From Longimicrobiales bacterium (GTDB taxonomy: Bacteria; Gemmatimonadota; Gemmatimonadetes; Longimicrobiales; Gaopeijiaceae): a stretch of 64,000 nucleotides of DNA. The notes under the pieces were generated by a model. The model did no database searches, had not been told where the DNA came from, and saw only the letters and a program-made list of their open reading frames with translations. Numbering within the stretch: the first letter of the stretch is position 1; each line of letters starts with the position of its first letter. A program made the position numbers and the translations under genes. Shown here in pieces: positions 35,454 through 50,490 of the stretch. The stretch is from contig OZ242008.1 in the NCBI GenBank assembly GCA_965204735.1, forward strand, positions 896,001-960,000, written 5' to 3'.

Positions 35454-35564
35454 CGTCTGCCGTGCCGGCGTCTCGCGCTTGCTGCCGGACGTGCGCGAGG
35501 GGCTGTTGGTGAGACAAGGTTCCGGCACATGGGCGACGAGTACTCGATCCTGTCCGAGAATCGA

Positions 35565-36338
35565 ATGAGACCGACAACGCTGTTCCTTGCGTGGCAGGAC
35601 AAGCGTGAACGGAGATGGTTTCCGGTGGGCAGGCTGGATGCCGATGGAGGACGTTCGCAGTACGTCTTCCGCTACACGCATGGTGCCGGCATCGCGAAGC
35701 GAGACAGCGGATTCGCCCCTCTGTACGACTTTCCTCGTCTCGAGGACGTATACGAATCTCGTCGTCTGTTCCCGCTGTTCGAGAATCGAGTCATGAACCG
35801 GGGAAGAAGAAGCTTTCGAGACTACCTCGAGCTCTTGGCCATCGAGAACCCCGACCCGGACCCATTGGAGATCTTGGCGATTGACGGGGGACGCCGAATG
35901 ACCGACAACTTCGAGGTGTTTCCGAAGATCGAGAAGAGCGACGACGGTGAGTTTCGTTGCCGCTTCTTGCTCCATGGCTCCCGGCACGTCAGCCGTCCGG
36001 CGCAGGAGCGGCTGCTCAGGCTGGCGGAAGGAGAACGGCTGCACGTGGCCCTCGAGCTTACCAATCCGGCCATGCCACTCGCGGTCCAGCTTCAAACCGA
36101 AGACTACCACATGATCGGGTGGGCGCCTCGATACTTGGTCGCCGACTTGGCCGAGGCGATGGCTCACGCCCCGACCGAGTACAAGGCCAATGTGGTCAGG
36201 ACCAGCACAGAGGCGCTGTTCAAGCACAGCGTGTTGATCGAACTGAGCGGCTGCTGGCCCGAAGAGCACGAGCCCATGTCGTCCGAGAGCTATCAGCTGC
36301 TGGGCGGGGACGAGGAGGACGCGCTTCCATGGACCTGA
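35565..36338 (+). CDS. HIRAN-domain protein with HipA-N-like N-terminus
   Basis: LFLAWQD...WFPVGRL...FRY; LFPLFENR; IGWAPRYL. Confidence 0.75.
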   Translation: MRPTTLFLAWQDKRERRWFPVGRLDADGGRSQYVFRYTHGAGIAKRDSGFAPLYDFPRLEDVYESRRLFPLFENRVMNRGRRSFRDYLELLAIENPDPDPLEILAIDGGRRMTDNFEVFPKIEKSDDGEFRCRFLLHGSRHVSRPAQERLLRLAEGERLHVALELTNPAMPLAVQLQTEDYHMIGWAPRYLVADLAEAMAHAPTEYKANVVRTSTEALFKHSVLIELSGCWPEEHEPMSSESYQLLGGDEEDALPWT

Positions 36339-37105: not shown

Positions 37106-37107
37106 CT

Positions 37108-37132
37108 CTAATCTAACCTAACCTAACCTAAC
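37108..37132. repeat. CTAA(C/T) pentamer x5 at the island boundary
   Basis: ctaatctaacctaacctaacctaac. Confidence 0.95.
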
Positions 37133-37283
37133 TTGACAGCACGTTACGCTCCCTCCGTTGGCGGATGGACAGGTCGCAAGGCGCTCAGGCCCGCGTCCAA
37201 CGATTGCCGATCAGGTACTGCGAGGATCCGCGACTCCAGGACCTCCCAAACATCGCCGGCACGGGCCCTGCGACTCGCCCAGA

Positions 37284-40199
37284 TCAGTCATCATCGATCA
37301 GCCCGAGTTCCCGGAGCGGTTCCAGGACACCGTTTTCCAGCTTGGCCTTGTCGAGCGCACCTTTCGCCTCGACGTTGATGGAGATCCTGTCGGCCAAGGC
37401 CGCGAGGTTGGCGAGAGCGTTCCACGCGCCGTAGAGGGTGTCCCGATCTGCGCTGAACGAAAGAGCGACAGCGTCCGCATCCAGGGTGGCCGGCGTCGTC
37501 GAAGCACTTGGCTCGGGGCTGTCCGGCGTCTCGCGTACCAACCCGGTGCTGAGCTCGGGGCTCGACCAAAGTTCCGCTCCGTCAACAGCTTCGGGCTGAG
37601 CGGGAAGCGCGGCCGGGAGGATCAAGAACCCCGAATCGAGATCGATTTCGTCCTCGGCTACGCCGCGGTCGAAGGCGACTTGGCTCGTGTCGATTCGATA
37701 ACGGCCGTCCTCGCCAAGGGTCGGTCGGCCCGTGAAGTAGCCGAAGAAGCTGTTCTCGACGCCACGGGCGATGGCTCTGCGCACCACGTTGCCGGAAAGC
37801 AAGCGCGGGAAGCCAAGGAAGGAGAAGAACCCGGCAACCACCCGGGAGGTCGGAATTCCCGGCTCGGCGGATTCGACTTCTCCCAACCTGAACAGCTCGA
37901 CGATCTTCCCCGGTGCCACGTCTTCGAAGACTCTGCGGTGCACCATCGTCAGCAGCTCCATCATGCGATCGTGGATCCGGGCGCGCTTCTTCTCGTCGAG
38001 GGTCGTCTGGAGCGGCCGACCTCTCATGCCGACGGCGTCCAACGACAGCGAACCGCTGTCCGTCGTCGGCAGCCGGATTTCTTCGTACAACTTAAGCATC
38101 GCGGATTCGACCGCCGTTCTTTCGGTGGCGTCTCGTTCTCTGAGCTGACCCCTCTGCGCATCTGTAAGGTTGTGCTGCCGCCACCTCTGCAGGACCCGTT
38201 CGACGGCCGTCAGGTAGCGGACAGAGCGGCGAAGGCTCTCGACTTGGTCAGCCGACGGCACGGCGAGTCCAAGGCCATTGCGGAATTCGCGGGTACGGTT
38301 CCCGTGGTTCTCACAGAGATCTCTAGCTGTTTCTTTTTGCTCCCCCGTGGACTTGGCTGCGAACTCGAGCGGCAGATACGCGATCAGGAACCGAGATTCC
38401 TGGTCTGGTACGTCCGCCGATGTGGCCGGCCACACGATCGCCGAGCGCTGGCCCGCAAGCCTCTCTTCGATCAGCGTCTTTATCTTGGTCCTGATACGGC
38501 CCTCGTCCCGGCCCACCGCTTCGGCTTCCTGCTCGACCAGCAACGTGACGTTGGGGTCCCGCTTGAAGCAGTACCGAACGCCGTCGAAGTGCAGGTAGAG
38601 ACACTGTTCCTTGAGCTCCTTGAGACAGGCCTGAACGGTGGTGCTGTCGAGGTCTGGACCGACGCCGATGCTCAGCAGGTCGGGCTCGCTGATCCCGGGC
38701 GGCAACAGATCGCCGGCCGTGTCTTCCGAGCGGCGCAGGCCGCCGAAGGAATACATCAGCATGCATGTTGCCAGACGGGTAGCCGAGTGCTTGCCGGCCT
38801 CGGAGGTCACCTCCCGCGCGCGTCGGTCGTCGATCCGGCGGGTGCGAGCGTTTGTGCCGACGAAGTCATGCTCCAGACAAGCCTGAAAATCCTCCCGCTG
38901 TCCGACCTCTTTGAAGAAGGCGAGGCGTACATCCGCGTCGTGCACGGGAACGTCGCCCGGGCCGAGCAAGAGGCGCGAGCTGCCGGCACGGTGAGCAGCG
39001 CGCAGGCAGGAAGCGAGAAACCGCAGGGCACCGCGAGTTCTCTGGAAATCGGGAATGGCCGCCCAACGCTCCCGCATCACGTCGATCAGGGCCGGATGGA
39101 ATGGATAGGAAGACTGGATGCGATTCTGGAGCACCAAGCCGTCCTCTTCCGCCTGCTGCCGTTCCGACTCGCCGTGCGCTCGGGCGCGCCGCATCTGAGT
39201 GACTACGTCTCCGTAAGCCTTGGCGACGCTTCCCGCCACTTCCCGGTCCGGGGCTCCAGCCAGTAGCCGCCGCTGGATCACATTCAGGATCTCGTTGCCC
39301 TCGACGGGCTCCCGCCGCTGGTCCTTGCGCGCCGCGAGATGCTCCACTGTGCGGAGCAGGCCCGTGTACTCGAGGGATTCGCGGTTGCTCGACTGCAACG
39401 AGTATACGAGCACCGCGTTATCCACGTTGCCGACCGCGACCGTAAGGCGTTTCAGAAATGAAAGCGTCTCGTCCCGAAGGGTGGTCTGCTCGATGCGCAC
39501 CCCGCCAGCGCTAATGAGGTACTCCAGAACCTCGTCCAGGAGGATCAGGCTCGGGCCGTGCTTGAGCAGCTCGATGATCTGGTCTCCGCCTGGAGCAACT
39601 CGGCTATTGTCGTGCTCCCGGACGATCTCGTAGCCTTCCCGGCCCGCAAGTGCCCAAGCGATCCACCCCCAGACGGTCTTCGCGACGAAGCTCTCCTGCG
39701 GCACACGCTTTCCGACTCGAGCGTCAAAGAACTGCCCGTCGACGACTGCCACCCGTACTCCCTCCGGCCGCGGAAGTCCCGTTGCCTCCGGCAGTGCATC
39801 CAGGGCGGCCCTTGATCGGGCGCTGTGTAGCAGCGCGGCCAGCGTGTGCGACTTACCTCCGCCGAACGGTGTCAGCAACTTGAGCACGCGGTTGCCCTGG
39901 GAGCCTGCCAGCCGTCCCAGCACGTCCTCAAGCAGTGACTTCAGGCCGCCGGTAAGGTACGATGTCCCGAAGAAGCTGTCGGCGTCCCGGTAGACGACCG
40001 GAACACGTGGCAACGCCGAAGTCGGAACCTCGAGGTCCCTTCCTATCAGGTGGTCGGCCAGTGCCCCCAGGTCGAGTGCGAAGACGTCCTCCGAGAATTC
40101 TTCCGAGAGCACGTCAGGGTGCAGGTCTACGCATTGCAGCCAGGGTCGCCTAGCTACGTCCATGACTGTCGTTCTCCTGTGTTTAGGTTGGCTGGCCAT
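37284..40199 (-). CDS. DUF499-family AAA+ ATPase
   Basis: LTPFGGGKSHTL, ILLDE, SYPFHP, FQRTRGALR. Confidence 0.9.
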   Translation of the reverse strand: MASQPKHRRTTVMDVARRPWLQCVDLHPDVLSEEFSEDVFALDLGALADHLIGRDLEVPTSALPRVPVVYRDADSFFGTSYLTGGLKSLLEDVLGRLAGSQGNRVLKLLTPFGGGKSHTLAALLHSARSRAALDALPEATGLPRPEGVRVAVVDGQFFDARVGKRVPQESFVAKTVWGWIAWALAGREGYEIVREHDNSRVAPGGDQIIELLKHGPSLILLDEVLEYLISAGGVRIEQTTLRDETLSFLKRLTVAVGNVDNAVLVYSLQSSNRESLEYTGLLRTVEHLAARKDQRREPVEGNEILNVIQRRLLAGAPDREVAGSVAKAYGDVVTQMRRARAHGESERQQAEEDGLVLQNRIQSSYPFHPALIDVMRERWAAIPDFQRTRGALRFLASCLRAAHRAGSSRLLLGPGDVPVHDADVRLAFFKEVGQREDFQACLEHDFVGTNARTRRIDDRRAREVTSEAGKHSATRLATCMLMYSFGGLRRSEDTAGDLLPPGISEPDLLSIGVGPDLDSTTVQACLKELKEQCLYLHFDGVRYCFKRDPNVTLLVEQEAEAVGRDEGRIRTKIKTLIEERLAGQRSAIVWPATSADVPDQESRFLIAYLPLEFAAKSTGEQKETARDLCENHGNRTREFRNGLGLAVPSADQVESLRRSVRYLTAVERVLQRWRQHNLTDAQRGQLRERDATERTAVESAMLKLYEEIRLPTTDSGSLSLDAVGMRGRPLQTTLDEKKRARIHDRMMELLTMVHRRVFEDVAPGKIVELFRLGEVESAEPGIPTSRVVAGFFSFLGFPRLLSGNVVRRAIARGVENSFFGYFTGRPTLGEDGRYRIDTSQVAFDRGVAEDEIDLDSGFLILPAALPAQPEAVDGAELWSSPELSTGLVRETPDSPEPSASTTPATLDADAVALSFSADRDTLYGAWNALANLAALADRISINVEAKGALDKAKLENGVLEPLRELGLIDDD

Positions 40200-40215
40200 C
40201 GGTCCGACCCTCTCC

Positions 40216-43200
40216 TTACAGGAACCATGGCGTGTTCTCCAGCGACGGGTGCAGCTCGAACGGTTCCGACTGTCGCAAGAACGCCGCGGTCAAATAGGCG
40301 ATGTCCTTGGCGTACTTGAGTGTTATTGGCTCTCCACAAAACGCGTCGGTGGACGCCCAGTTCAGCTTCGTAAGGCTCAACACCTGAAGCGCCAGCACCC
40401 GCAAGTCCGGCCGACTGCCACGGTCGTTCGGTCTCTCAATCCATGCTGCTACCTCCAGTGGTCTTGCCGTCCCCATCATGCGACGAAACGGATTGTAACC
40501 TGTGGTGGACAGGTATAGCTTGTTGGTACCCACCTCAACGTAACTCCCTCGACGAAGGCTCCCATCCGTCTCCGGCCTATCATCGTAAAAGCGAACGTTG
40601 TGATGGGAATTGACCGAGACGAAAGCAAAGGTGCCCTCCGGGCGAACAGTTCGCGCCGATCGAAGAATCGCCTTCCGGTCGGCTCGTGCAAACTTCGCTG
40701 AATACTGGAACACCACGCGGGGAGTCGACGACAGTTGGGAATCTAGCCTCTTCAACACATCCTTGGCCAACTCGGCGAGGCGGAGATGTCGATCCTCAAA
40801 GTCAAAATAAGATGTGTTGCCCCGGTAAAACTCCCATCTTCCATATTGGTTGAACACGCTAGCAAAACCCATGATCCGACGGCCATCTCTGGACTGCGTG
40901 TAGGACAACCCCACAAAAAAATCCGCCTCTGGAATCGCATCCGGCAATACCCACGGCCGGACGCCGCACTTTGCACAAATGTTCAAGGCTAGATTCAGAT
41001 CTTTCCAATCTGGATTCTCAAGCGTTGGCGTGTCGACCATCTGACATGGTACGCCTCGTTCCAACAGCAGTCTCTTATTGACGTAGTACGGTGCCAGGTG
41101 GTCGTCTCGAGCATATCCCTCTTCGGGGGTATGGACAAGGAAAATGGATCTAGGATGAAGGTTGGCTCGACTCCTCTGTCGCTGATGCAAGAGACGTTCA
41201 AGTTCTGCATGAATATCATCAACATGGCTCACCGTAGCAATCCCCGAATACCAGAATTTTGTCGCAAACGTTCGTTCGGAGCCGCGATACTTGTACCGAC
41301 CTCCAATCAAACGTTCGATCAGGCCTTCCATTCCTTGACGGACTGCAGTCAGACAAACCGGTACAAGCTCAATCTCCTGTGGGTCATCGCCATAGGAGCC
41401 ATACTGTGTGATGCCGGCCCGGACATCCGGTGACAGCTGGCGCTGCCGAAACTCCACTTCCGGCTCTGGGAGTCGCCGAACGGTCAGTTCCTTTTCCGAA
41501 GGTCGCAGTCGTTCGGAAAGTCGAATCGGGTTGGTAGCGATATCGACGTCAAGATCGCAACATCGCAAAGGAAACAACTTGTCCGACAGATATTTCACGC
41601 TTGCCAGAATCTTTTGAGCCCTCTCCCTAGCGGAACCCGGTCTCGTAACCAAGCTATGCTCTCGAATCGCAGCGGCAAGATCGAACGACGGTTCCTCCTT
41701 GTGCAGCATAGACTTCAACATCTCCACAGTGCAAATGGGAATGACGTCACTGATAGGGATAGTTTCTACCGTGCCGGTGTCAAGGAATCGTACTTCCGCA
41801 AACTCATCGTTAAATCCAGACAGATGTCCCCTGCGCCACTGTCCATTGTTTGCTATGCAACGATGGCCATCAAGTCTGGCTCGTGCAAAATGCTGCTTCA
41901 CAACCGTGAGATTTCTTACGTTGAGAGCAACGCATCTGTAATCGATACACAAATAGAAGCGTTGACCATACTGCCGGACCTGAAATTCGTATGCCGGATA
42001 GAGTCGCACAATAGACCTCACCCCAACCGGTGTGCCGATCTCAGTGCGCCTCATGTGTGCAAGTATTCTGCTGAATCCATCTCGGTGTATGAACCATCCA
42101 TTTCCTTCTAACGCATCGCGAAGCGTTCGCACAAGCTGCCCATAACGTGATCCAAATACCTCATACCCTACCACGTTGTCCTGTTGCCGAAATCTCAACA
42201 GAAACAAATTGCTGAATTCCGTTGCGTTATCGTTGTTTGCCGCCGCTAGGAGCGCGGCTTCGCGCTCTTCCGCCCTGTTCTCAATCTGGATCAATGTCTC
42301 GTTCGAAAGGAGACGATATGAGGGAGCCGGCAACCCGAGGGTCTCCATCGCCGTAACCATCTGCTTCGTGCCCTCGCTAATGGCCTGCACATAGGCCACA
42401 CCACTCGGATCTCTCATTAGCTTCAGCCATTCTAGAAGCTTAGTATTCCTAGGCATCGAATCAAGTATGACGTCTGCCAACGAAAAACGCGGTGGTGGAT
42501 CAGTGTCTCGCTGAATTATCCGGCCTGGATTCTTCACCACGAATGCATCCGTGTACGCCTCGCATTCAATCGGCACCCCGGTTCGATAGTCCCTATGCGC
42601 TAAGGCGTTCACGAGTGCTTCGTCAATGACGGTATAAGGAAATTCGGGCTCTTCGACGAAGCCACCGGTTGGCCGTCGCTTTTGATAGCGCTTAAAGAAT
42701 GCGGACTCTCTGAAGAATGTCCTCGCCTCCCGGATCTGTTTCGTAACCGGACCTGTGAATTTTTGATCGAATGTCGGGAGACCACGTCTGGCATGGTCGT
42801 TGACCACCACTCCAAACCGCATTAGGCGAATGTGAGCTGCCGGAAGGACACGTTGCGGATTTGATCCAAAGAACAGAAGTCCGGCATATGTAAACCAATA
42901 GTCGTCATCGCGGCGAACCAATGCACCTGCCTCATAGAGCAGTCGTTCATCCGAGAAGCGTCTGGTTGCATCGGGGGAAAACACCTTGCGAAATTCTTTC
43001 AGAACGTCATCCGAAAGATCTGCAGGATCGTAGGGGCAGCAGAACGCGTTCTCGAAGTCGGTAAGGTTTTTTCTGTCCCGAAGCCGATCACGCATCGCCT
43101 GCGTGACCAGGACGTTTTGAGGTCCGCGTCGCTCCCAAGCCTTCGGCCTAGCCCGAAGCGTCTCGCAAATGGCATTGGTCGCATAGGGGGCAAATAACAG

Positions 43201-43587
43201 ACAAATAGTGTTGCTTTGGTCGGAATCATCGCGACATTCGTAAAGTCTAGCTTCGACGGCCTGATTGTGAAGGAGGCTCCCAATGTCAGTGAGGCTGTTT
43301 TTCTGACCTTCTGTCAGGTGGTTGACGCCTGCGACGTTGCCGTTGGACTCAATTCCGATCACCAGCAACCCACCTCTAACGTTGCTGTTGGCGAAGGCCG
43401 AAATGGTCTCGGTGATTCCGTCCCGGAGCTTCTTCAGTTGGTTTGTGAGCTCCCTGGGAGGGCTCCCCTTGCGGCCCGCAGCCTTACGATCGAAGTGCTG
43501 GCCCTCGAAATCGTCATCCGAGGACTGGGTCAAGAAGCCCCAGTGACTTGCGGGATCGTCGTAGACTGCCCGTGGGGAGGGTTCCAT
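40216..43587 (-). CDS. Schlafen/AlbA_2-HATPase-long prokaryotic Argonaute fusion (PIWI predicted inactive)
   Basis: EGQHFDRK, SAFANS..GGLLVIGI; EALVNALAHRDY, NPG, EGT; MID YYVNK/PCQMV/NICAKCGVRPW; PIWI FVGLS, RGSY, QVLSLTKLNW, EPITLKYA. Start chosen by the GAGGA RBS. Confidence 0.88.
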   Translation of the reverse strand: MEPSPRAVYDDPASHWGFLTQSSDDDFEGQHFDRKAAGRKGSPPRELTNQLKKLRDGITETISAFANSNVRGGLLVIGIESNGNVAGVNHLTEGQKNSLTDIGSLLHNQAVEARLYECRDDSDQSNTICLLFAPYATNAICETLRARPKAWERRGPQNVLVTQAMRDRLRDRKNLTDFENAFCCPYDPADLSDDVLKEFRKVFSPDATRRFSDERLLYEAGALVRRDDDYWFTYAGLLFFGSNPQRVLPAAHIRLMRFGVVVNDHARRGLPTFDQKFTGPVTKQIREARTFFRESAFFKRYQKRRPTGGFVEEPEFPYTVIDEALVNALAHRDYRTGVPIECEAYTDAFVVKNPGRIIQRDTDPPPRFSLADVILDSMPRNTKLLEWLKLMRDPSGVAYVQAISEGTKQMVTAMETLGLPAPSYRLLSNETLIQIENRAEEREAALLAAANNDNATEFSNLFLLRFRQQDNVVGYEVFGSRYGQLVRTLRDALEGNGWFIHRDGFSRILAHMRRTEIGTPVGVRSIVRLYPAYEFQVRQYGQRFYLCIDYRCVALNVRNLTVVKQHFARARLDGHRCIANNGQWRRGHLSGFNDEFAEVRFLDTGTVETIPISDVIPICTVEMLKSMLHKEEPSFDLAAAIREHSLVTRPGSARERAQKILASVKYLSDKLFPLRCCDLDVDIATNPIRLSERLRPSEKELTVRRLPEPEVEFRQRQLSPDVRAGITQYGSYGDDPQEIELVPVCLTAVRQGMEGLIERLIGGRYKYRGSERTFATKFWYSGIATVSHVDDIHAELERLLHQRQRSRANLHPRSIFLVHTPEEGYARDDHLAPYYVNKRLLLERGVPCQMVDTPTLENPDWKDLNLALNICAKCGVRPWVLPDAIPEADFFVGLSYTQSRDGRRIMGFASVFNQYGRWEFYRGNTSYFDFEDRHLRLAELAKDVLKRLDSQLSSTPRVVFQYSAKFARADRKAILRSARTVRPEGTFAFVSVNSHHNVRFYDDRPETDGSLRRGSYVEVGTNKLYLSTTGYNPFRRMMGTARPLEVAAWIERPNDRGSRPDLRVLALQVLSLTKLNWASTDAFCGEPITLKYAKDIAYLTAAFLRQSEPFELHPSLENTPWFL

Positions 43588-43687
43588 CAGCACTTCCTCT
43601 TCGTGGGACGCCCAAGACGGCAGAGCCGGAATCGCCCAAAGGTTGCGGGCTTGGCCGTGCGTTTCCACCACCGGCGGTTCGCCGCTC

Positions 43688-46492
43688 TCATCGGTCGTCA
43701 TCCTCCAGGGCGAGTTCCGTCTGTCCGAAGATAGGGCCTTCGCTCTCTCGATCATAAGCGGCCCCTTCAACGACACTTCGCCAATTGGCGTTCAGCTTGG
43801 AGAGGGCGCGCAACTCGGTGGTCGTGGTCGCGTCCTGCGCCTCGGGGCGTGAAAGCACTGGCGCACAGAGTGCCTGAGTGACCAACCGGAGCTGCTCCTG
43901 GCTCGGTCGCGCCGACTTCAGGAACTCCCGGACCTGGATCGGCCGGTGGTCGAGCAACCAGAGCAGCCGGTGGATGACGTCGATTAGCGGGGCCTGTCGG
44001 CCGTTCGTACTGATGCCCAGCCCGTCGTCGCTACCGCGCTCCTCGAAGGTCCGGACGCGGAATTTGCTCCTGGACTTCTCGACCAGGCACGGAGGGGGGC
44101 CGGAGAGCCCCTGTGGACCGTCGATCTCGATGCCCTGCGGATAGCAGAACACGTACGCGTCGCCGGCCTGGATGAGGGATTCACGATAGGTAAACCTCCA
44201 TAGGACGTAGAAGCGCGTCTCTGGGTCCACGGAGCCGACGGCTGCTCCACGCAAACCGAAGATCTCGTCAAGCATGACATCAAGTACGACGCCCTCGACG
44301 TCGCGGAGGTAGAGTTCGGCGGGCACGATTTCGCCGTTGGCGTACTCGACCTTGGCGAACCGCGTGTAGGCACGCAGGCCCGCGCCGACCGCAGCCATAA
44401 GGAGGTCTGCACCTCCAATTCCCTTGCCTCCCGCCCATAGGGTCGTCACGCGTTCGCGTGCGATGTGGAGAAGCTCCGGCTTTACCTGTGCCTCGTACCG
44501 CCCGGTCTCGGTCGTTTCGCGGCGGCGAGCGACGAAAAAGATGCTGTCGGAAAGCGCGGCGGCACCGAGCGCGTTGACCCTTCCTCGAGACTCCGTCTGC
44601 ACCGGCCATGCCTCGGTGACCGTGAGCCCCGCCCCAACTAGCGCACGAATCAATGTGGCCCATCCCTCCGTCGTTCGGTGGGCGTAGACGCAGACCAGTG
44701 GGGCACCCGGCTTCAGGACGCGACGGGCTTCTGCGAACGAGCGGCGCATCATGTCTTGATAGTGCATGTTCGCCTTCTTTGCGTCCCCGCCGTGCTCGCT
44801 CGGCTGTGCGACCGCCTCGCGCCGCTTGGGCGGCACAGGCAACGTGAAGTGCTCGGGGTAGAGATCACCGACGATGCGCTTCAGCCATACGTAGAAGAAC
44901 GCGGACAGATCCGCGTAGTATATGCTGCTATAGTACGGCGGGTCGGTGACCACCGCGTCGAAGGTCTCGTCGTTGTAGAACAGCTTTTCCGCGTTGCCGC
45001 GCGCAACAACCGATGGCTGGCCGACCTTGGCGAGCTCTCGAATACAGTACGCTTCCCGGTCCAGCGCGAAGGGGAGGCAGCCCTGGGTGTGCGCTAACCC
45101 ATTGATCTCTGAGAAATCGTAAATCATCTTCAGGGCTTGCCGATCACCAATAGCTCCTATCGTCCTCTGCACTCTGGGCTCCCACCGAGAGAACTTGTTG
45201 AATGTGACGACGAAACGGCCGAACGCCATCGCGAAATAGGTCGACAGCGCTCGTGCCCGGTCCTCGGCCATACCCTCCTTCAGCATTTCGGCGTGGGCCT
45301 GTCGAATGTTTTTGATCAGGGTCAACAGGACCAGTAGCTGTCGAGGCGTGAATAGTTCGCGATACGTATTCACTCCATAGTTAGGAAGTTGGTCACCAAG
45401 TTTCCCTTGAAGCATACCACCAGGAGGCTCACAACCGAGTTCCCCCTCAAGCTTCTCCAAACGCTGCTCTATCTCGTCCGCCGGCAACTCTACCGTGACA
45501 TCCGGGGGCAAGTATACTTTGGTTCGCCTTTTCCTCGATTTACCTTCTGGCGGCAACGAAACCACTACGGCAGCAAGCGATTCTTTCATCCTGTCGACTG
45601 TCGCCATTTCCTTGACGTGATCGGCAGGGGCAGGTGTATTGCATGCGACGCAGACCGCTTGTCCCGCGCCAGTCTGCGCCTCTTGTTGGGAGACTTCTCG
45701 GATGGACGCACCGGAAACGATGTCCCAGCAAAGTCGGTTGCCATCTTCGATTTGGGGAACAGCGGCAACGGCTCCGTTCTTCTTGCGTAGCCAAGCTTGG
45801 CGAACGAGCGGCACCGACGTGCCGCATCCCGGCCGACGACAGGGCACAGTGCGCGCCCAGATGCAAGCGATCAGGGTTGCTTCGCGCGACGGAGTGGGTG
45901 AATCTGATGTCCGGTTTCCGAAGAGGGTGATCTGGGAAGCGACCGCGTCCGATTCAGGTATCCGGACGTCTGGGTAAAGGTCGCCAACATCCTTCTTCAC
46001 GCGTTCGAGGACAACCCGACCCCAGTGTTCGAAGTCGTCGGCCAACTTCGGTCCGAACGTCTGTGGATACGCTAGCGTACATAGTTCGATCAGGTGGGCT
46101 ACCGGGTTGTAGTCGAGCGCGTGGCTCTCGCAACCGAGACGGGCGGCCTCGAGCGGAATCGCACCTCCGCCCGCAAATGGGTCCAGCACCTTCGGCGTCC
46201 GGCCACCGTGCGCCTCCAGGATGTGTCTGCGAGCCTTCTTGACGACTTCCGGATCCGGCTTGAACGCAGCGAGGTTGGCAACGAAAGACGCGGCTTCCCT
46301 ACGCTCGTCGTCCGATTCCGGCGCAGCGACTAGGGCGGCGTAGACCGCGGCGCGCGATGCGGTGATCGGACGGCGAGCGGGCCAGTAGTGGATCATCTCC
46401 ACGTATCGCCGGGGATGCAGCTTCTCGTGGGATGCGATGGCGTTGAGCGCGTCAAGAGGAAGGTAGTCCTCGATCAGTCGGCGGTCATCCAT
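43688..46492 (-). CDS. DUF1156-type adenine DNA methyltransferase
   Basis: RLIEDYLP, HYWPARRP, DPFAGGG, TDPPY. Confidence 0.9.
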   Translation of the reverse strand: MDDRRLIEDYLPLDALNAIASHEKLHPRRYVEMIHYWPARRPITASRAAVYAALVAAPESDDERREAASFVANLAAFKPDPEVVKKARRHILEAHGGRTPKVLDPFAGGGAIPLEAARLGCESHALDYNPVAHLIELCTLAYPQTFGPKLADDFEHWGRVVLERVKKDVGDLYPDVRIPESDAVASQITLFGNRTSDSPTPSREATLIACIWARTVPCRRPGCGTSVPLVRQAWLRKKNGAVAAVPQIEDGNRLCWDIVSGASIREVSQQEAQTGAGQAVCVACNTPAPADHVKEMATVDRMKESLAAVVVSLPPEGKSRKRRTKVYLPPDVTVELPADEIEQRLEKLEGELGCEPPGGMLQGKLGDQLPNYGVNTYRELFTPRQLLVLLTLIKNIRQAHAEMLKEGMAEDRARALSTYFAMAFGRFVVTFNKFSRWEPRVQRTIGAIGDRQALKMIYDFSEINGLAHTQGCLPFALDREAYCIRELAKVGQPSVVARGNAEKLFYNDETFDAVVTDPPYYSSIYYADLSAFFYVWLKRIVGDLYPEHFTLPVPPKRREAVAQPSEHGGDAKKANMHYQDMMRRSFAEARRVLKPGAPLVCVYAHRTTEGWATLIRALVGAGLTVTEAWPVQTESRGRVNALGAAALSDSIFFVARRRETTETGRYEAQVKPELLHIARERVTTLWAGGKGIGGADLLMAAVGAGLRAYTRFAKVEYANGEIVPAELYLRDVEGVVLDVMLDEIFGLRGAAVGSVDPETRFYVLWRFTYRESLIQAGDAYVFCYPQGIEIDGPQGLSGPPPCLVEKSRSKFRVRTFEERGSDDGLGISTNGRQAPLIDVIHRLLWLLDHRPIQVREFLKSARPSQEQLRLVTQALCAPVLSRPEAQDATTTTELRALSKLNANWRSVVEGAAYDRESEGPIFGQTELALEDDDR

Positions 46493-49400
46493 GATCCATG
46501 TCATCCGGTCTCCCGCAAACCTCTGCCTGATCCACCGTCTCCTGATCGAAAGCGGCCTGTTCCACAGCCCTTGCCGGGAGATCATAGTATCGTGCGGCCA
46601 CGACCTCCTTCTTGGCGTAGTCCAAGTGCTTGGCGGGGTTCTGGATCATCAGCGGAGTCGGGTCCGGGTTGTCCAACGGATCCCAGACGACATAAAGCCA
46701 GTAGGTGTCGGCGAGCTGTTGCGCCTTGTACCACTCGTTGGTGGTCAGCCGGACGGGCTGGCCGCGTTGTCGGCCCTTGACCTCGATGCGGCGCACACCG
46801 GTCACAGGGTCCCGGTAGCCCGTCTGTGGGTCCGGCGGCGCCAGGCTTCGAACGTCGAAGCCGATCTTCTGGTGCCCGACCCGCTCGCACTCGCGGCCCT
46901 GGGCCTCCTCATAGGCGACGACAACGTCCTCCGCGGCAACCTCGACCCGCTGCGTCAACGCCGGGTCGGGTTCCTCTCTGAATACGAGGGCGCGCTCCGT
47001 ATCCGTGTCGGGAGGCAGTACCAAGCAGCTCGCTATGTGCCGCACGGGACCGTGCCGGGCGATGCGAAGCCGCTCAATACCGGCCAGGCGCTCCTCCTGT
47101 GTGCGTTGCAGATCGGCAAGATCCTGTTCCGCACGCTGACGTGCCAGCGTTACTTCCGGCTCTTTTGGCTCCCGGGCCCGTAGCCCCATCACCCGATCCT
47201 GCGAGGCACGGGCACGAGCGGCGAAAGACTTCTCGAGATAGTCGCGCGCTACTTCCGCATAGTGGCCGCGTTCGGCCTGGGCGTCTCGCCGCCGCTGCAT
47301 CTGGATCGTCGCCTTGACATAGTCGCCGACGAGGCCTTGGTCGATCCCGGGCAAGGTCACGGACGGACTCGGATGGGCAGGCAGATCGATGAGCGCGTCC
47401 GGCGGCACTGTGCTGAAACGATCCGCAACGGCGATATCTTCGCCGCCCTCCTCCCGCACGGCCACCAGCTCGGAATGTATCGTCGTCGCCTCGCCCTTGG
47501 TGTTCTGGCCCTGTACTGGAATCTCGTAGAAATGGAGACGGTAGGGAGATTTCCCGTGCGGGTCCACGTACACGGCCGTCTGGCCCGCAAGCCGCTCGCC
47601 AAGGCTGTCTTGCAACCTCTCGTCCACGGCGGCGTAGAGCGGATGTCCGGGACCGACGAGTACGGCGTCAAGGTGCCGATCCTGCTCCAGGTGCTCCTTG
47701 TAGAAGGTCAGCTTGCGGTAGCTCGCCTCGGGCTTCCCATGGCGCCGGACCGCGGCAAGGCGCTCGGAGCGGAGCTCGGCGCGCACGTGCTCGATCCGCC
47801 AGAGTCCGTCCGCTCTTGGCTCTGTCCGCAGGCCCACCGCCCTGGCAGCGTTCAAGAAGTGGGATTCGACATAGCGAGGCATGAGCCGCCGCTCCTCCGT
47901 TTCCAAGTTTGCCCGTGCGAAGGACGAAAAATCTACGTGGGCGCGGGCCAATGCAATCCCAGTCGCGTCTTCGTACAGATCGAGCTGCTTCGGATCGATC
48001 CGCTCAATCGCATCGAGATAGTCGTCGAGGCGGCGCGGCTCATAGGCCACCTCCCGAAGCATTTCCGGCAGGTTGACCTTGTTCAGGGAGAGCACTTCGC
48101 CGACGACGTCGAACACTCGATCGCCGAGCGCATCCCGCATCCGGTTCAACTTGCTCAGCAGGCGCTCCAGAATACGTCCTTCGATGACTGGCTGACCGTC
48201 CTGCGACGAAGTGGCGACGAAATTGAAGGCGTACACATCGCGAGACTGCCCGATGCGGTGGATGCGGCCAAGTCGCTGTTCGAGACGGGTTGGGTTCCAA
48301 GGCAGATCGTAGTTGACCATCAGGTGACAGAACTGGAGGTTGATGCCCTCTCCGGCGGCCTCCGTCGCCACGCAGATCTGGCGGCTAGTTCGGAAATCTT
48401 CTTGAGCCTGCTTGCGCTCGTGCGGGTTCATCCCGCCGTGAATTTCGCATGTCGAATACCCCCAGGACTCGAGATGGCTCCTCAGGTGGTTCAGCGTGTC
48501 CCGGTGCTCGGTGAAGATAAGGAGCTTACCGCGTCCGTCCTTCAGTTCGTCGAATTCCGTTCGTTCCAGGCACTCGCGCAATGCGACGAGCTTGGAATCG
48601 AGGCCGCCTTCGCGCAATCGGCCTACGCTCGTCGCGAGGTCCCGTAGCGCCGCGACCTCGGCCCGTAGCTGACCCAAGGCGAGGGCCGCTGTAGTCTCGT
48701 CGATGAGACAATCGCGAGATGCGTCGTCGAGGTCGTCTTCGTCCTGTTCTACGTCGGCAACTTGACCTGATGCCTGCGCGAGTCGTCTCGCCCGCTGGGC
48801 AGGGGGCAAGTTGTCGAGTTCGTCAACCAATTCTCTTAGCCGTGTTCGACGACGAATCAGCGATTCGTGAATTGCGCGGGTAGAGCTGGCCAAGCGACGT
48901 TGAAATACCGTGCGCACGAGAGCGACGCTGTTCTTTCGCCTTCCGGTCGTTTGTGGAAGGAACTCATTGATGTATGCCGTTACCGCCTTGTAAACCGCGT
49001 ACTCTTGTTCGCTGAGCGCAAAGCTGACCGTGTGTACGTGGCGGTCCGCAAACAACCGACGCCCATGCAGGTCCTTGAGGTCTTCCTTGAGCCGTCGAAG
49101 CGACCACGGGCAATCTTGGCCGAGTTGTAGTACATCGCGTCGAACATGAGCGGCTTCTTCGCCTACGCGATGGGGTTCGGGGAACAGGTCCCGGTCGATA
49201 AGCCGGATGAAGTGTGCGAACCGGTCATCGTCACCGTGATGAGGCGTGGCTGTCAAGAGCAGCAGGTGGTCGCAATGTTCGGAGAGCCGCTCGGCGAGCT
49301 GGTAGCGCTTCGTGCGCTCAATCCCGTCCCCGCGACCGGTGGAGTACTTGGTACGAGCACTGCACTTGTGGGCTTCGTCGATGATGACGAGGTCCCAGTG

Positions 49401-50120
49401 CTGCCGCCACACGCGCTCCCGCACCTCGTCCCGCTTGGCGTAGTCGATGGAAGACACGATCTGCGTCTCTCGCTCCCATAGGTTTAGGAACTGCTGCTGG
49501 TCGTTCGCGGAGTGAACGACCTGGAACGTTTCATTGAAGAAGCGGAGTAGCTCGTCCTGCCACTGAATGGTCAACGGTGCCGGAACGAGGATCAGGCAAC
49601 GCTCGACGGCCTCTCGGAGCTTGAGTTCCTTGATGAGAAGGCCGGCCATGATCGTCTTCCCCGCGCCCGGATCGTCGGCGAGCAGGAAACGCAGGCGCGG
49701 CTGTGGTAGCATCCTACGGTAAACCGCGTCGATTTGATGAGGCAGAGTGCGGATGCCGGAAAGGCTGACCGCAAAGTGACGATCGAAGGTGTACGCCAAG
49801 CGGATACGAGCCGATTCGATCAAGAGCCGCATCTCCTCGGGATCGGCGGGTTGCGCCGCAGCGACTTCCCGTGGGTGATCACCCGACGCTACAGCAGCGG
49901 CGGCTTCCTCCGAAGAGATGATGGCCTCTTCAAGCGCTCCGTCGGGCAGGCGCACCCGGCATTCGTAGCCGGCGGAATCAGGTGCCGCAAGCGTTCTGAC
50001 GTCTTCGAGGACGACAGGTACATCGAAGTGCCCCGGTAGCGAGAGTCGTCGTCCGACCCATTCCGACAACTGGGCCTTCGTCTTCCCGTTCGTCTCGTTC
50101 TTGAGTGCCTGTAGCGTCAT
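46485..50120 (-). CDS. SNF2-family helicase with C-terminal DUF3883-type PD-(D/E)xK nuclease
   Basis: LADDPGAGKT, DEAH, TATPH, EQRLGRIHRIGQ; GFDVRS...IEVKG, LTTNEW. Confidence 0.92.
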   Translation of the reverse strand: MTLQALKNETNGKTKAQLSEWVGRRLSLPGHFDVPVVLEDVRTLAAPDSAGYECRVRLPDGALEEAIISSEEAAAAVASGDHPREVAAAQPADPEEMRLLIESARIRLAYTFDRHFAVSLSGIRTLPHQIDAVYRRMLPQPRLRFLLADDPGAGKTIMAGLLIKELKLREAVERCLILVPAPLTIQWQDELLRFFNETFQVVHSANDQQQFLNLWERETQIVSSIDYAKRDEVRERVWRQHWDLVIIDEAHKCSARTKYSTGRGDGIERTKRYQLAERLSEHCDHLLLLTATPHHGDDDRFAHFIRLIDRDLFPEPHRVGEEAAHVRRDVLQLGQDCPWSLRRLKEDLKDLHGRRLFADRHVHTVSFALSEQEYAVYKAVTAYINEFLPQTTGRRKNSVALVRTVFQRRLASSTRAIHESLIRRRTRLRELVDELDNLPPAQRARRLAQASGQVADVEQDEDDLDDASRDCLIDETTAALALGQLRAEVAALRDLATSVGRLREGGLDSKLVALRECLERTEFDELKDGRGKLLIFTEHRDTLNHLRSHLESWGYSTCEIHGGMNPHERKQAQEDFRTSRQICVATEAAGEGINLQFCHLMVNYDLPWNPTRLEQRLGRIHRIGQSRDVYAFNFVATSSQDGQPVIEGRILERLLSKLNRMRDALGDRVFDVVGEVLSLNKVNLPEMLREVAYEPRRLDDYLDAIERIDPKQLDLYEDATGIALARAHVDFSSFARANLETEERRLMPRYVESHFLNAARAVGLRTEPRADGLWRIEHVRAELRSERLAAVRRHGKPEASYRKLTFYKEHLEQDRHLDAVLVGPGHPLYAAVDERLQDSLGERLAGQTAVYVDPHGKSPYRLHFYEIPVQGQNTKGEATTIHSELVAVREEGGEDIAVADRFSTVPPDALIDLPAHPSPSVTLPGIDQGLVGDYVKATIQMQRRRDAQAERGHYAEVARDYLEKSFAARARASQDRVMGLRAREPKEPEVTLARQRAEQDLADLQRTQEERLAGIERLRIARHGPVRHIASCLVLPPDTDTERALVFREEPDPALTQRVEVAAEDVVVAYEEAQGRECERVGHQKIGFDVRSLAPPDPQTGYRDPVTGVRRIEVKGRQRGQPVRLTTNEWYKAQQLADTYWLYVVWDPLDNPDPTPLMIQNPAKHLDYAKKEVVAARYYDLPARAVEQAAFDQETVDQAEVCGRPDDMDHG

Positions 50121-50274
50121 TTGGGCGTGTGATTGGCCAGGAGACAATCCAAGACAGCACGTCAAGATACTACTAGGGAACACGCCGGATGTCCACCGGG
50201 GCCTGGAGAGAGCGGCCTACCACGGCAGAAACGGTCATGTTTGGTCGCATATCCCTATATGATCCAGGGTCCTG

Positions 50275-50420
50275 AACGGGCTGCTGAGGTAGGCGACGGC
50301 GACGAAGTTCTCGGTGGACGCGGTACCGCGGGCCCGGAGTTTCGCCGCCTAGACCAGCGAGTTCATGGCCTCCAGTATCCCGTTTCTGATCCGCGAGCGG
50401 AACCACGCTACGCGATGCCC
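50275..50420 (-). mobile_element. ISL3 transposase C-terminal relic
   Basis: VAWFRSRIRNGILEAMNSLV*AAKLRARG...NFVAVAYL with an in-frame TAG at 50349-50351. Confidence 0.75.
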
Positions 50421-50490
50421 CTCGTCCGGCCGGTCCCCCACAGCCCCGTCCGCCCCGGGCGGAACCCGGAGACCCGGACGCAGGACCGCC

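Follow-up and report, generated by a model that had tools for sequence, protein, structure and literature searches.

An apparently intact Schlafen-Argonaute gene at the hmaB/hmaC junction of a Hma operon in a Longimicrobiales bacterium

Positions 37284-50120 of the window, a 64,000-nucleotide stretch of a Longimicrobiales bacterium (GenBank assembly GCA_965204735.1, contig OZ242008.1, positions 896,001 to 960,000), hold four co-directional long open reading frames (ORFs) on the minus strand, in the order hmaA, hmaB, SLFN-GHKL long-B Argonaute and hmaC. We consider it probable that an intact Hma operon here carries an intact SLFN-pAgo gene (hereafter the Ago) at its hmaB/hmaC junction, that the two are co-expressed and act as mechanistically independent defences, and that the Ago is transferred from one Hma allele to another when duplicated junctions recombine. 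The gene content, the intact motifs, the limits of the surrounding island, the variability of its cargo and the repeats in relatives were directly observed. The original prediction had described a co-directional operon of helicase-nuclease, methylase, Ago fusion and DUF499 ATPase with the Ago as internal cargo; PADLOC and Pfam agree with that description of the four ORFs, and the Ago indeed sits between hmaB and hmaC. The features of the operon are as follows.

46485..50120, minus strand: hmaA, SNF2 helicase/translocase with a C-terminal NOV_C PD-(D/E)xK nuclease, ~1211 amino acids
43688..46504, minus strand: hmaB, DUF1156 amino-methyltransferase, ~938 amino acids; overlaps the hmaA stop
43668..43691, minus strand: vestige of an earlier hmaC start that overlaps the hmaB stop (ATGA), left over from the upstream junction copy
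40216..43587, minus strand: SLFN-pAgo, with Schlafen/AlbA_2 nuclease, GHKL ATPase, MID and catalytically dead PIWI, 1123 amino acids
37284..40163, minus strand: hmaC, DUF499 AAA+ ATPase, ~959 amino acids; ORF open to 40199

The three genes flanking the Ago read as an intact Hma operon. HmaA, HmaB and HmaC were the best PADLOC matches (5e-189, 9e-108 and 1e-95), and the co-oriented SNF2 helicase, methyltransferase and DUF499 ATPase that define the system are all present, with likely starts at 50120 (hmaA), 46504 (hmaB), 43587 (Ago) and 40163 (hmaC). Pfam recognised SNF2, Helicase_C and NOV_C in HmaA, the last (PF13020, 3e-15), which we take to be DUF3883, being accompanied by a GFD...IEVK motif; DUF1156 (PF06634) and N6_N4_Mtase in HmaB; and DUF499 in HmaC, where no N-terminal HEPN match was obtained. 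Motifs were intact in all three proteins (DDPGAGKT, DEAH, QRLGRIHRIG and D..EVK in HmaA; DPFAGGG and DPPY in HmaB; PFGGGKSH and LLDE in HmaC). The Hma system was named in PMC8565338 and corresponds to the Type-1 DUF499-centred BREX-related system of bioRxiv 10.1101/2025.10.09.681413, so the earlier view of the trio as a BREX-related, methylation-based module holds. Membership in Gao_RL/MANTIS, the Type-2 BREX-related system, was considered and rejected: the window contains no DUF3780 ORF and no PLD nuclease domain, and the NF042962-4 equivalogs scored far under cut-off.

The Ago, too, appears intact, with the residues of nuclease, ATPase and guide pocket all present. The PADLOC pAgo model PDLC02394 matched with 1547 bits over positions 2-1121 of 1121. 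A longer ORF from 43776 overlaps hmaB, and the start was placed at Met 43587 because the homologues and the PADLOC model begin there. SLFN_AlbA_2 (PF04326) scored above the Pfam cut-off and HATPase_c_4 (PF13749, E 2e-4) under it. The nuclease motif E(x)4(D/E)xK is present as E28, D33 and K35, with a SAFAN box at 63-67; the catalytic GHKL residues E323 and N327 are invariant in 92/92 aligned sequences; Y834 and K838 of the MID guide pocket are invariant, and Y1092 and the C-terminal tyrosines of the family are kept. The PIWI tetrad is absent, S895 occupying what we presume, from the general PIWI motif and the structural matches to MID-PIWI, to be the position of the first catalytic aspartate. 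Those matches were to MID-PIWI of pAgos (best E 3e-9), and the search against solved structures returned no close one. A PAZ region is presumed from the family, in the part where Pfam gave a weak Tudor-like match only.

Schlafen-fused long pAgos were noted previously (10.1101/366930), and the SLFN-pAgo family was described as 78 proteins of 1071-1187 amino acids with no conserved partner (bioRxiv 10.64898/2026.05.29.728809). The window protein, with 1123 amino acids and SLFN and GHKL domains N-terminal to the Ago core, falls within that description and shares with RzAgo of the same study the E(x)4DxK, SAFAN, E-x3-N and MID Y/K signatures and the lack of a PIWI tetrad; E323 and N327 correspond to RzAgo E314 and N318 by motif mapping, not by direct alignment, and RzAgo D72 has no mapped counterpart. 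RzAgo carries 18-23-nt 5'-A RNA guides in vivo and binds RNA far better than DNA; single-stranded DNA serves only as its target, upon which its filament gives way to an ATP-dependent tetramer and tRNA is cut, and as a single gene it protects the heterologous host F. johnsoniae (10.64898/2026.05.29.728809). By analogy, the window Ago is likely a self-sufficient, tRNA-cutting suicide defence.

Duplicated junctions surround the Ago in two relatives, G426 and G427. In both, the layout is hmaB, 50 codons of hmaC (hmaC'), Ago, 34-43 codons of hmaB ('hmaB) and hmaC, with direct repeats of 245 bp (89%) and 266 bp (92%), respectively, flanking the Ago. Close flanking repeats were found in only these two of 27 loci, L021 giving a weak 128-bp match. 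The non-coding 'hmaB copies match the hmaB of their own genome at 99/101 and 96/102 positions and the relic of the other genome more poorly, at 84/101. A sister genome, G446, has a single empty hmaB/hmaC junction, which matches the downstream copy of G427 at 98/102 and 94/94 positions; its hmaC is 94% identical to that of G427. At its distal end, each hmaC' relic is more like a different allele type (in G427, 37/48 to the hmaC of G426 vs 29/48 to its own), and the Ago-side breakpoint of the relic is identical in G426 and G427. Between these two genomes the Ago is 85.9% identical in DNA, compared with 79.5% for hmaB and hmaC, and the hma genes are mosaic (hmaA of G426 and G444 96.5%, hmaC 86.7%). 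Because the repeats match the resident allele and the sister genome has an empty junction, the pattern points to allele exchange, and it suggests that the Ago was swapped between Hma alleles by recombination via the duplicated junctions. The Ago would then have inserted once and afterwards recombined repeatedly with the alleles resident in its hosts, whether as a cassette that can be excised or through gene conversion; loop-in, loop-out or conversion by recombination would have left the junctions as they are now.

The window itself retains only a relic of this duplication. Its 24-nt hmaC-start remnant matches the hmaC start of G426 at 20/25 bases, a score reached in 0/300 shuffles. A candidate 'hmaB relic downstream of the window Ago was rejected as chance-level, and a 19-nt resemblance to the hmaB end past the Ago stop of L001 (E 0.5) was not counted. 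Duplicated hmaA 3' ends also surround other cargo, in G446 (442 bp, 90%) and G468 (241 bp, 78%). Cargo is stacked between hmaA and hmaB in these two genomes (L105/L097 and L107/L099), split by the duplicated hmaA 3' ends and an hmaB fragment, and small antitoxin-like genes recur in G427, G446 and G468.

The association of the Ago with Hma is real and confined to one clade. Among 453 Ago homologues at E <=1e-20, 120 were listed, and 37 loci (13 from genomes, 24 from metagenomes) were obtained and searched with the three Hma proteins. Flanks were tabulated for 27 loci; dropping the 10 with <3 kb on one side left 17 informative ones, which include near-duplicates (L028/L029; L009-L011). The Ago lies between hmaB and hmaC in two of the 17 (L002/G426 and L003/G427, with Agos of 76-77% identity to that of the window) and 2 kb downstream of hmaC in one (L024), while 14/17 showed no Hma match. 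On the Hma side, 12 complete loci with HmaC of >=67% identity were compared. The Ago is present in 3/12, namely the window and the two reached through the Ago, and absent from 9/9 close Hma loci reached through HmaC; in seven of the 12, hmaA and hmaB are separated by different cargo, which by sequence consists mostly of Gabija-like pairs, with Pfam run on the G402 copy only. No Ago was found in 400 other genomes of the window's phylum or in 300 of G426's class. Two further Agos (46% and 52%) occur in the family of G426, with no Hma match within short flanks; the G428 family has HmaC at 50% identity only.

In a quick-method, midpoint-rooted tree of 52 Ago proteins, the window, L002, L003 and the Hma-free L001 (73%) share one 25-row clade (SH-aLRT 99), in which L001 nests near L002, inside the clade of Hma-embedded Agos. 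Of the four close homologues whose context is known, three are linked to Hma, as shared descent and co-transfer would lead one to expect, and L001 demonstrates that the Ago can persist intact without Hma. The original prediction had proposed counting co-occurrence of this Ago with DUF499 loci and had named a lack of linkage as what would speak against it: the linkage stood within the close clade and largely failed as a general rule. Pfam on 86 of 107 picked neighbours of the Ago loci returned type I and type III restriction-modification (RM), DISARM-like, MmeI, dndB, HipA and housekeeping genes. At L010 (group L009-L011) the SLFN-pAgo sits between hsdM and hsdS; at L004 it lies behind DISARM-like drmABC, with a drmC-like gene, and at L014 and L019 behind type III mod genes; proximity to dndB was also seen in a set including L028. 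These placements amount to a broad preference of SLFN-pAgo for DNA-modification operons, uncorrected for background frequency.

The Hma locus resembles the published systems (PMC8565338, PMC11232893) in its hmaA-hmaB-hmaC order, its domains and its co-oriented cargo between core genes; in that literature HmaA by itself confers defence against T4 by means of its nickase, and insertions, some of them between hmaB and hmaC, are reported for ~66.5% of hma loci (PMC11232893). It differs in that the cargo is a SLFN-pAgo, which the published text does not name as Hma cargo in its available part, and in that the window HmaC has no N-terminal HEPN match, because of which the Ago could fill the role of suicide RNase in the Hma operon. 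Embedded genes were counted in 931/1485 Hma systems (62.7%), their significance being left open (bioRxiv 10.1101/2024.01.29.577857). The present locus shares with those systems an autonomous defence gene that is nested, co-oriented and co-transferred; the duplicated junctions and matching empty allele here suggest a route of embedding, and none is given in the available text of that study. Within the RzAgo family, the clade of the window Ago is distinguished by sitting repeatedly at the hmaB/hmaC junction, and the available text of 10.64898/2026.05.29.728809 makes no mention of Hma, DUF499 or embedding. PrrC in EcoprrI (10.1101/2024.01.29.577857) is likewise a tRNA nuclease backup inside a restriction-modification operon; the RM complex holds PrrC inactive, whereas SLFN-pAgo senses through guides of its own and is not known to contact Hma. 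For the Hma layer, the mechanism is best modelled on MANTIS/Gao_RL, which also combines a DUF499 ATPase, a DUF1156-type methyltransferase and an SF2 helicase-nuclease. In MANTIS the ATPase loads the methyltransferase for hemimethylation and the helicase-nuclease restricts unmarked DNA, with a small DUF3780 protein and a PLD nuclease required (10.64898/2026.09.23.753747), both of which are absent here.

From these homologues, a layering of two defences by co-expression and co-transfer would be the probable arrangement. HmaB, probably loaded by the HmaC AAA+ ATPase, would methylate host sites, and the HmaA helicase-nuclease would nick or cut unmarked DNA. In the second layer, modelled on RzAgo, the Ago would take short RNA guides from transcripts and rest as a filament; pairing with complementary single-stranded invader DNA would drive the ATP-dependent formation of an Ago tetramer, whose Schlafen domains would cut tRNA and abort the infection. 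Restriction plus abortive infection, the combined output originally proposed, is what such an arrangement would be expected to give.

The guide supply proposed at the same time fared worse. That the Ago takes up, as guides, pieces of DNA cut by the Hma nuclease is, in our judgement, highly improbable. Long-A pAgos load DNA guides at breaks, and the adjacency of the genes is the sole evidence for the idea here. RzAgo, however, prefers RNA and carries 5'-A RNAs in vivo, the MID Y/K pocket and the C-terminal tyrosines are conserved in the window Ago, and the PIWI tetrad is absent. Because the linkage is clade-limited and RzAgo gives protection by itself, guided by RNA against DNA targets, feeding of guides by Hma is unsupported. 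A looser functional coupling is unlikely, yet less so: nicks or breaks made by HmaA and resected by host recombination nucleases might supply the single-stranded DNA that triggers the Ago, or the Ago might be a PrrC-like guard that fires when Hma is inhibited. The shared junction in three of four close homologues would agree with coupling, as would the recurrence of SLFN-pAgos in or beside modification systems (L010, L004, L014 and L019), the PrrC precedent and proposals of backup RNases. RzAgo nonetheless defends without a cognate partner, the Ago has crossed between hmaB/hmaC alleles more diverged than itself, L001 has an intact Ago and no Hma, and none of the nine loci found through HmaC has the Ago.

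As to history, it is possible, at rather less than even chances, that the repeats stem from one old insertion, for instance a tandem Hma duplication trimmed by deletions, and that gene conversion with empty alleles arriving later made them uniform; the Ago would then not be excisable today, its function being unchanged. The common Ago-side breakpoint in G426 and G427, the mosaic hma genes and the lack of a circle or skip joint, as judged from window reads only, would suit this, and L024, with its Ago downstream of hmaC, may preserve a precursor layout. Against it, the distal hmaC' ends resemble another allele type, as passage between hosts predicts, and the Ago is less diverged than its flanking genes. 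That the Ago is a decaying passenger without current function seems very unlikely: a long branch leads to the window/P0002 pair in the tree, R71 (~43377) stands just past the SAFAN box where 86/92 aligned sequences have E or D, and the hmaC relics of G402 and run X8 are signs of decay of the island, yet the ORF is full-length with all mapped catalytic residues, and a near-identical intact copy occurs in a run from another study. Run X8 (record 28) holds an hmaC copy with a 1255-bp deletion.

Several observations weigh against two independent defences joined by allele exchange. R71 departs from the usually acidic site of the RzAgo family, and residues were compared with RzAgo by motif, without alignment to RzAgo itself. 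The junction repeats are documented in two related genomes, both from a single family; in the window the downstream 'hmaB relic was not above chance (29/300 shuffles), and no Ago-skipping joint was found among those listed for four runs compared with the window (36 joints not shown), reads having been mapped on the window only, where the junction repeats are gone. Across ~25% amino-acid divergence and two or more phyla the Ago has stayed at one junction, a pattern that could equally arise by selection for coupling, and other SLFN-pAgos lie mostly in or beside DNA-modification systems. A wider proposal, to which we give tentative credence at most, is that Hma cargo in general is acquired and swapped without integrase via duplicated junction pieces, host recombination looping it into any related Hma allele or out again, with an intact operon restored; the SLFN-pAgo would be a cassette of this type that has passed between sponge-associated bacteria from different phyla and become fixed here by repeat erosion, and may be a PrrC-like tRNase backup armed by Hma-made DNA ends.

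The operon lies in a strain-variable island, whose remaining features are listed here.

37106..50480, no strand: defence island between convergent SDR and UPF0047-like genes
37108..37132, no strand: (CTAAY)5 array at the left island edge; stops in all six frames
37133..37263, no strand: hmaC-linked tail, 130 nt, 78% identical to DNA behind the hmaC relic in G402
50167..50195, minus strand: sigma-70-like promoter candidate upstream of hmaA, predicted; 9/12 consensus positions, 0.1 expected in shuffles
50286..50480, minus strand: ISL3 relic, internally deleted, stopping at the right island edge

The limits of the 13.4-kb island (~37106-50480) were drawn because the SDR gene directly abuts the UPF0047-like gene in 3/3 same-genus genomes searched (G401, G402 and G403) and a contig of run X10 bridges 37099 and 50480 with 40 other bases, representing an empty allele. 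The CTAAC array and ISL3 relic had been taken as the bounds, and both do mark the edges. The array (5 units, 37108-37132) is missing from the empty sites, and perfect period-5 arrays of >=4 copies number only five in the 4.14-Mb genome. At the right edge no complete DDE_Tnp_ISL3 transposase was found, but a 195-bp relic fusing both ends of the element: an ISL3 that is intact in G403 (Pfam DDE_Tnp_ISL3) shares 85% identity at its 3' end with 50286-50420 and 81% on its 5' side with 50421-50480. ORF and domain inspection of the window showed no integrase gene inside the island, and comparison with the empty sites showed no target-site duplication at its ends. In G402, the tail follows a 92%-identical hmaC 3' third at another locus (G402:C1:1239108-1240266, L059), which is followed by Fic and Gabija-like genes.

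An assembly chimera is argued against because a single gap-free 4506-bp contig of run X4, whose study is not that of the run ranking first for the sequence, crosses the Ago and both its junctions with 16 differences and no gaps. A joint at 40395-42421 in X4 (42-base side) contradicts this contig and was not counted. No RNA runs carrying the locus were among the matches listed. GC content at third codon positions is 0.58 in the Ago, 0.72-0.77 in the hma genes and 0.84-0.93 in three host genes, as expected if the Ago is the island's most foreign component.

Further observations concern the surrounding genome. Period-5 arrays of the CTA[A/G]N type, with stops in all six frames, account for four of the five perfect pentamer arrays of four copies in this genome, which has 69% GC; besides the window copy, arrays were recorded at G000:C1 1813632, 2771209, 3243007, 901623 and 2638588. 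The two CTAAC arrays each border a stretch that same-genus genomes lack, and the CTAAA array lies in a region common to G403. A lone HIRAN-domain gene at 35529-36338 on the plus strand (PADLOC PDC-M03B, 1e-76), with no adjacent partner gene, is missing at this site in G401; a second copy (46% identity) lies at C1:2111692-2112450. Four more Hma/BREX-related-like loci occur in G000:C1, at 232-246, 647-676, 1790-1810 and 3004-3028 kb, the last with a 2.4-kb, 90%-identical duplicate of an hmaB-like gene and other repeats. A large gene at L123:6486-11001 (G000:C1 ~2771.5-2776 kb) has at least 10 paralogues (70-78%) in each of G401-G403.

Hma, SLFN-pAgo and the embedding pattern have all been described before. 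For an Ago within Hma, or for junction duplication around the cargo, we found no report in the literature, and figures or supplements may list such loci. Why and how defence genes come to be embedded in restriction-like operons was left open in the available text of 10.1101/2024.01.29.577857, and the filled and empty pair G427/G446 offers a concrete, testable route. The locus further offers a naturally occurring pair for asking if activation of a guide-sensing tRNase is increased by a nuclease of restriction type; otherwise, it is a good new example of two already described systems.

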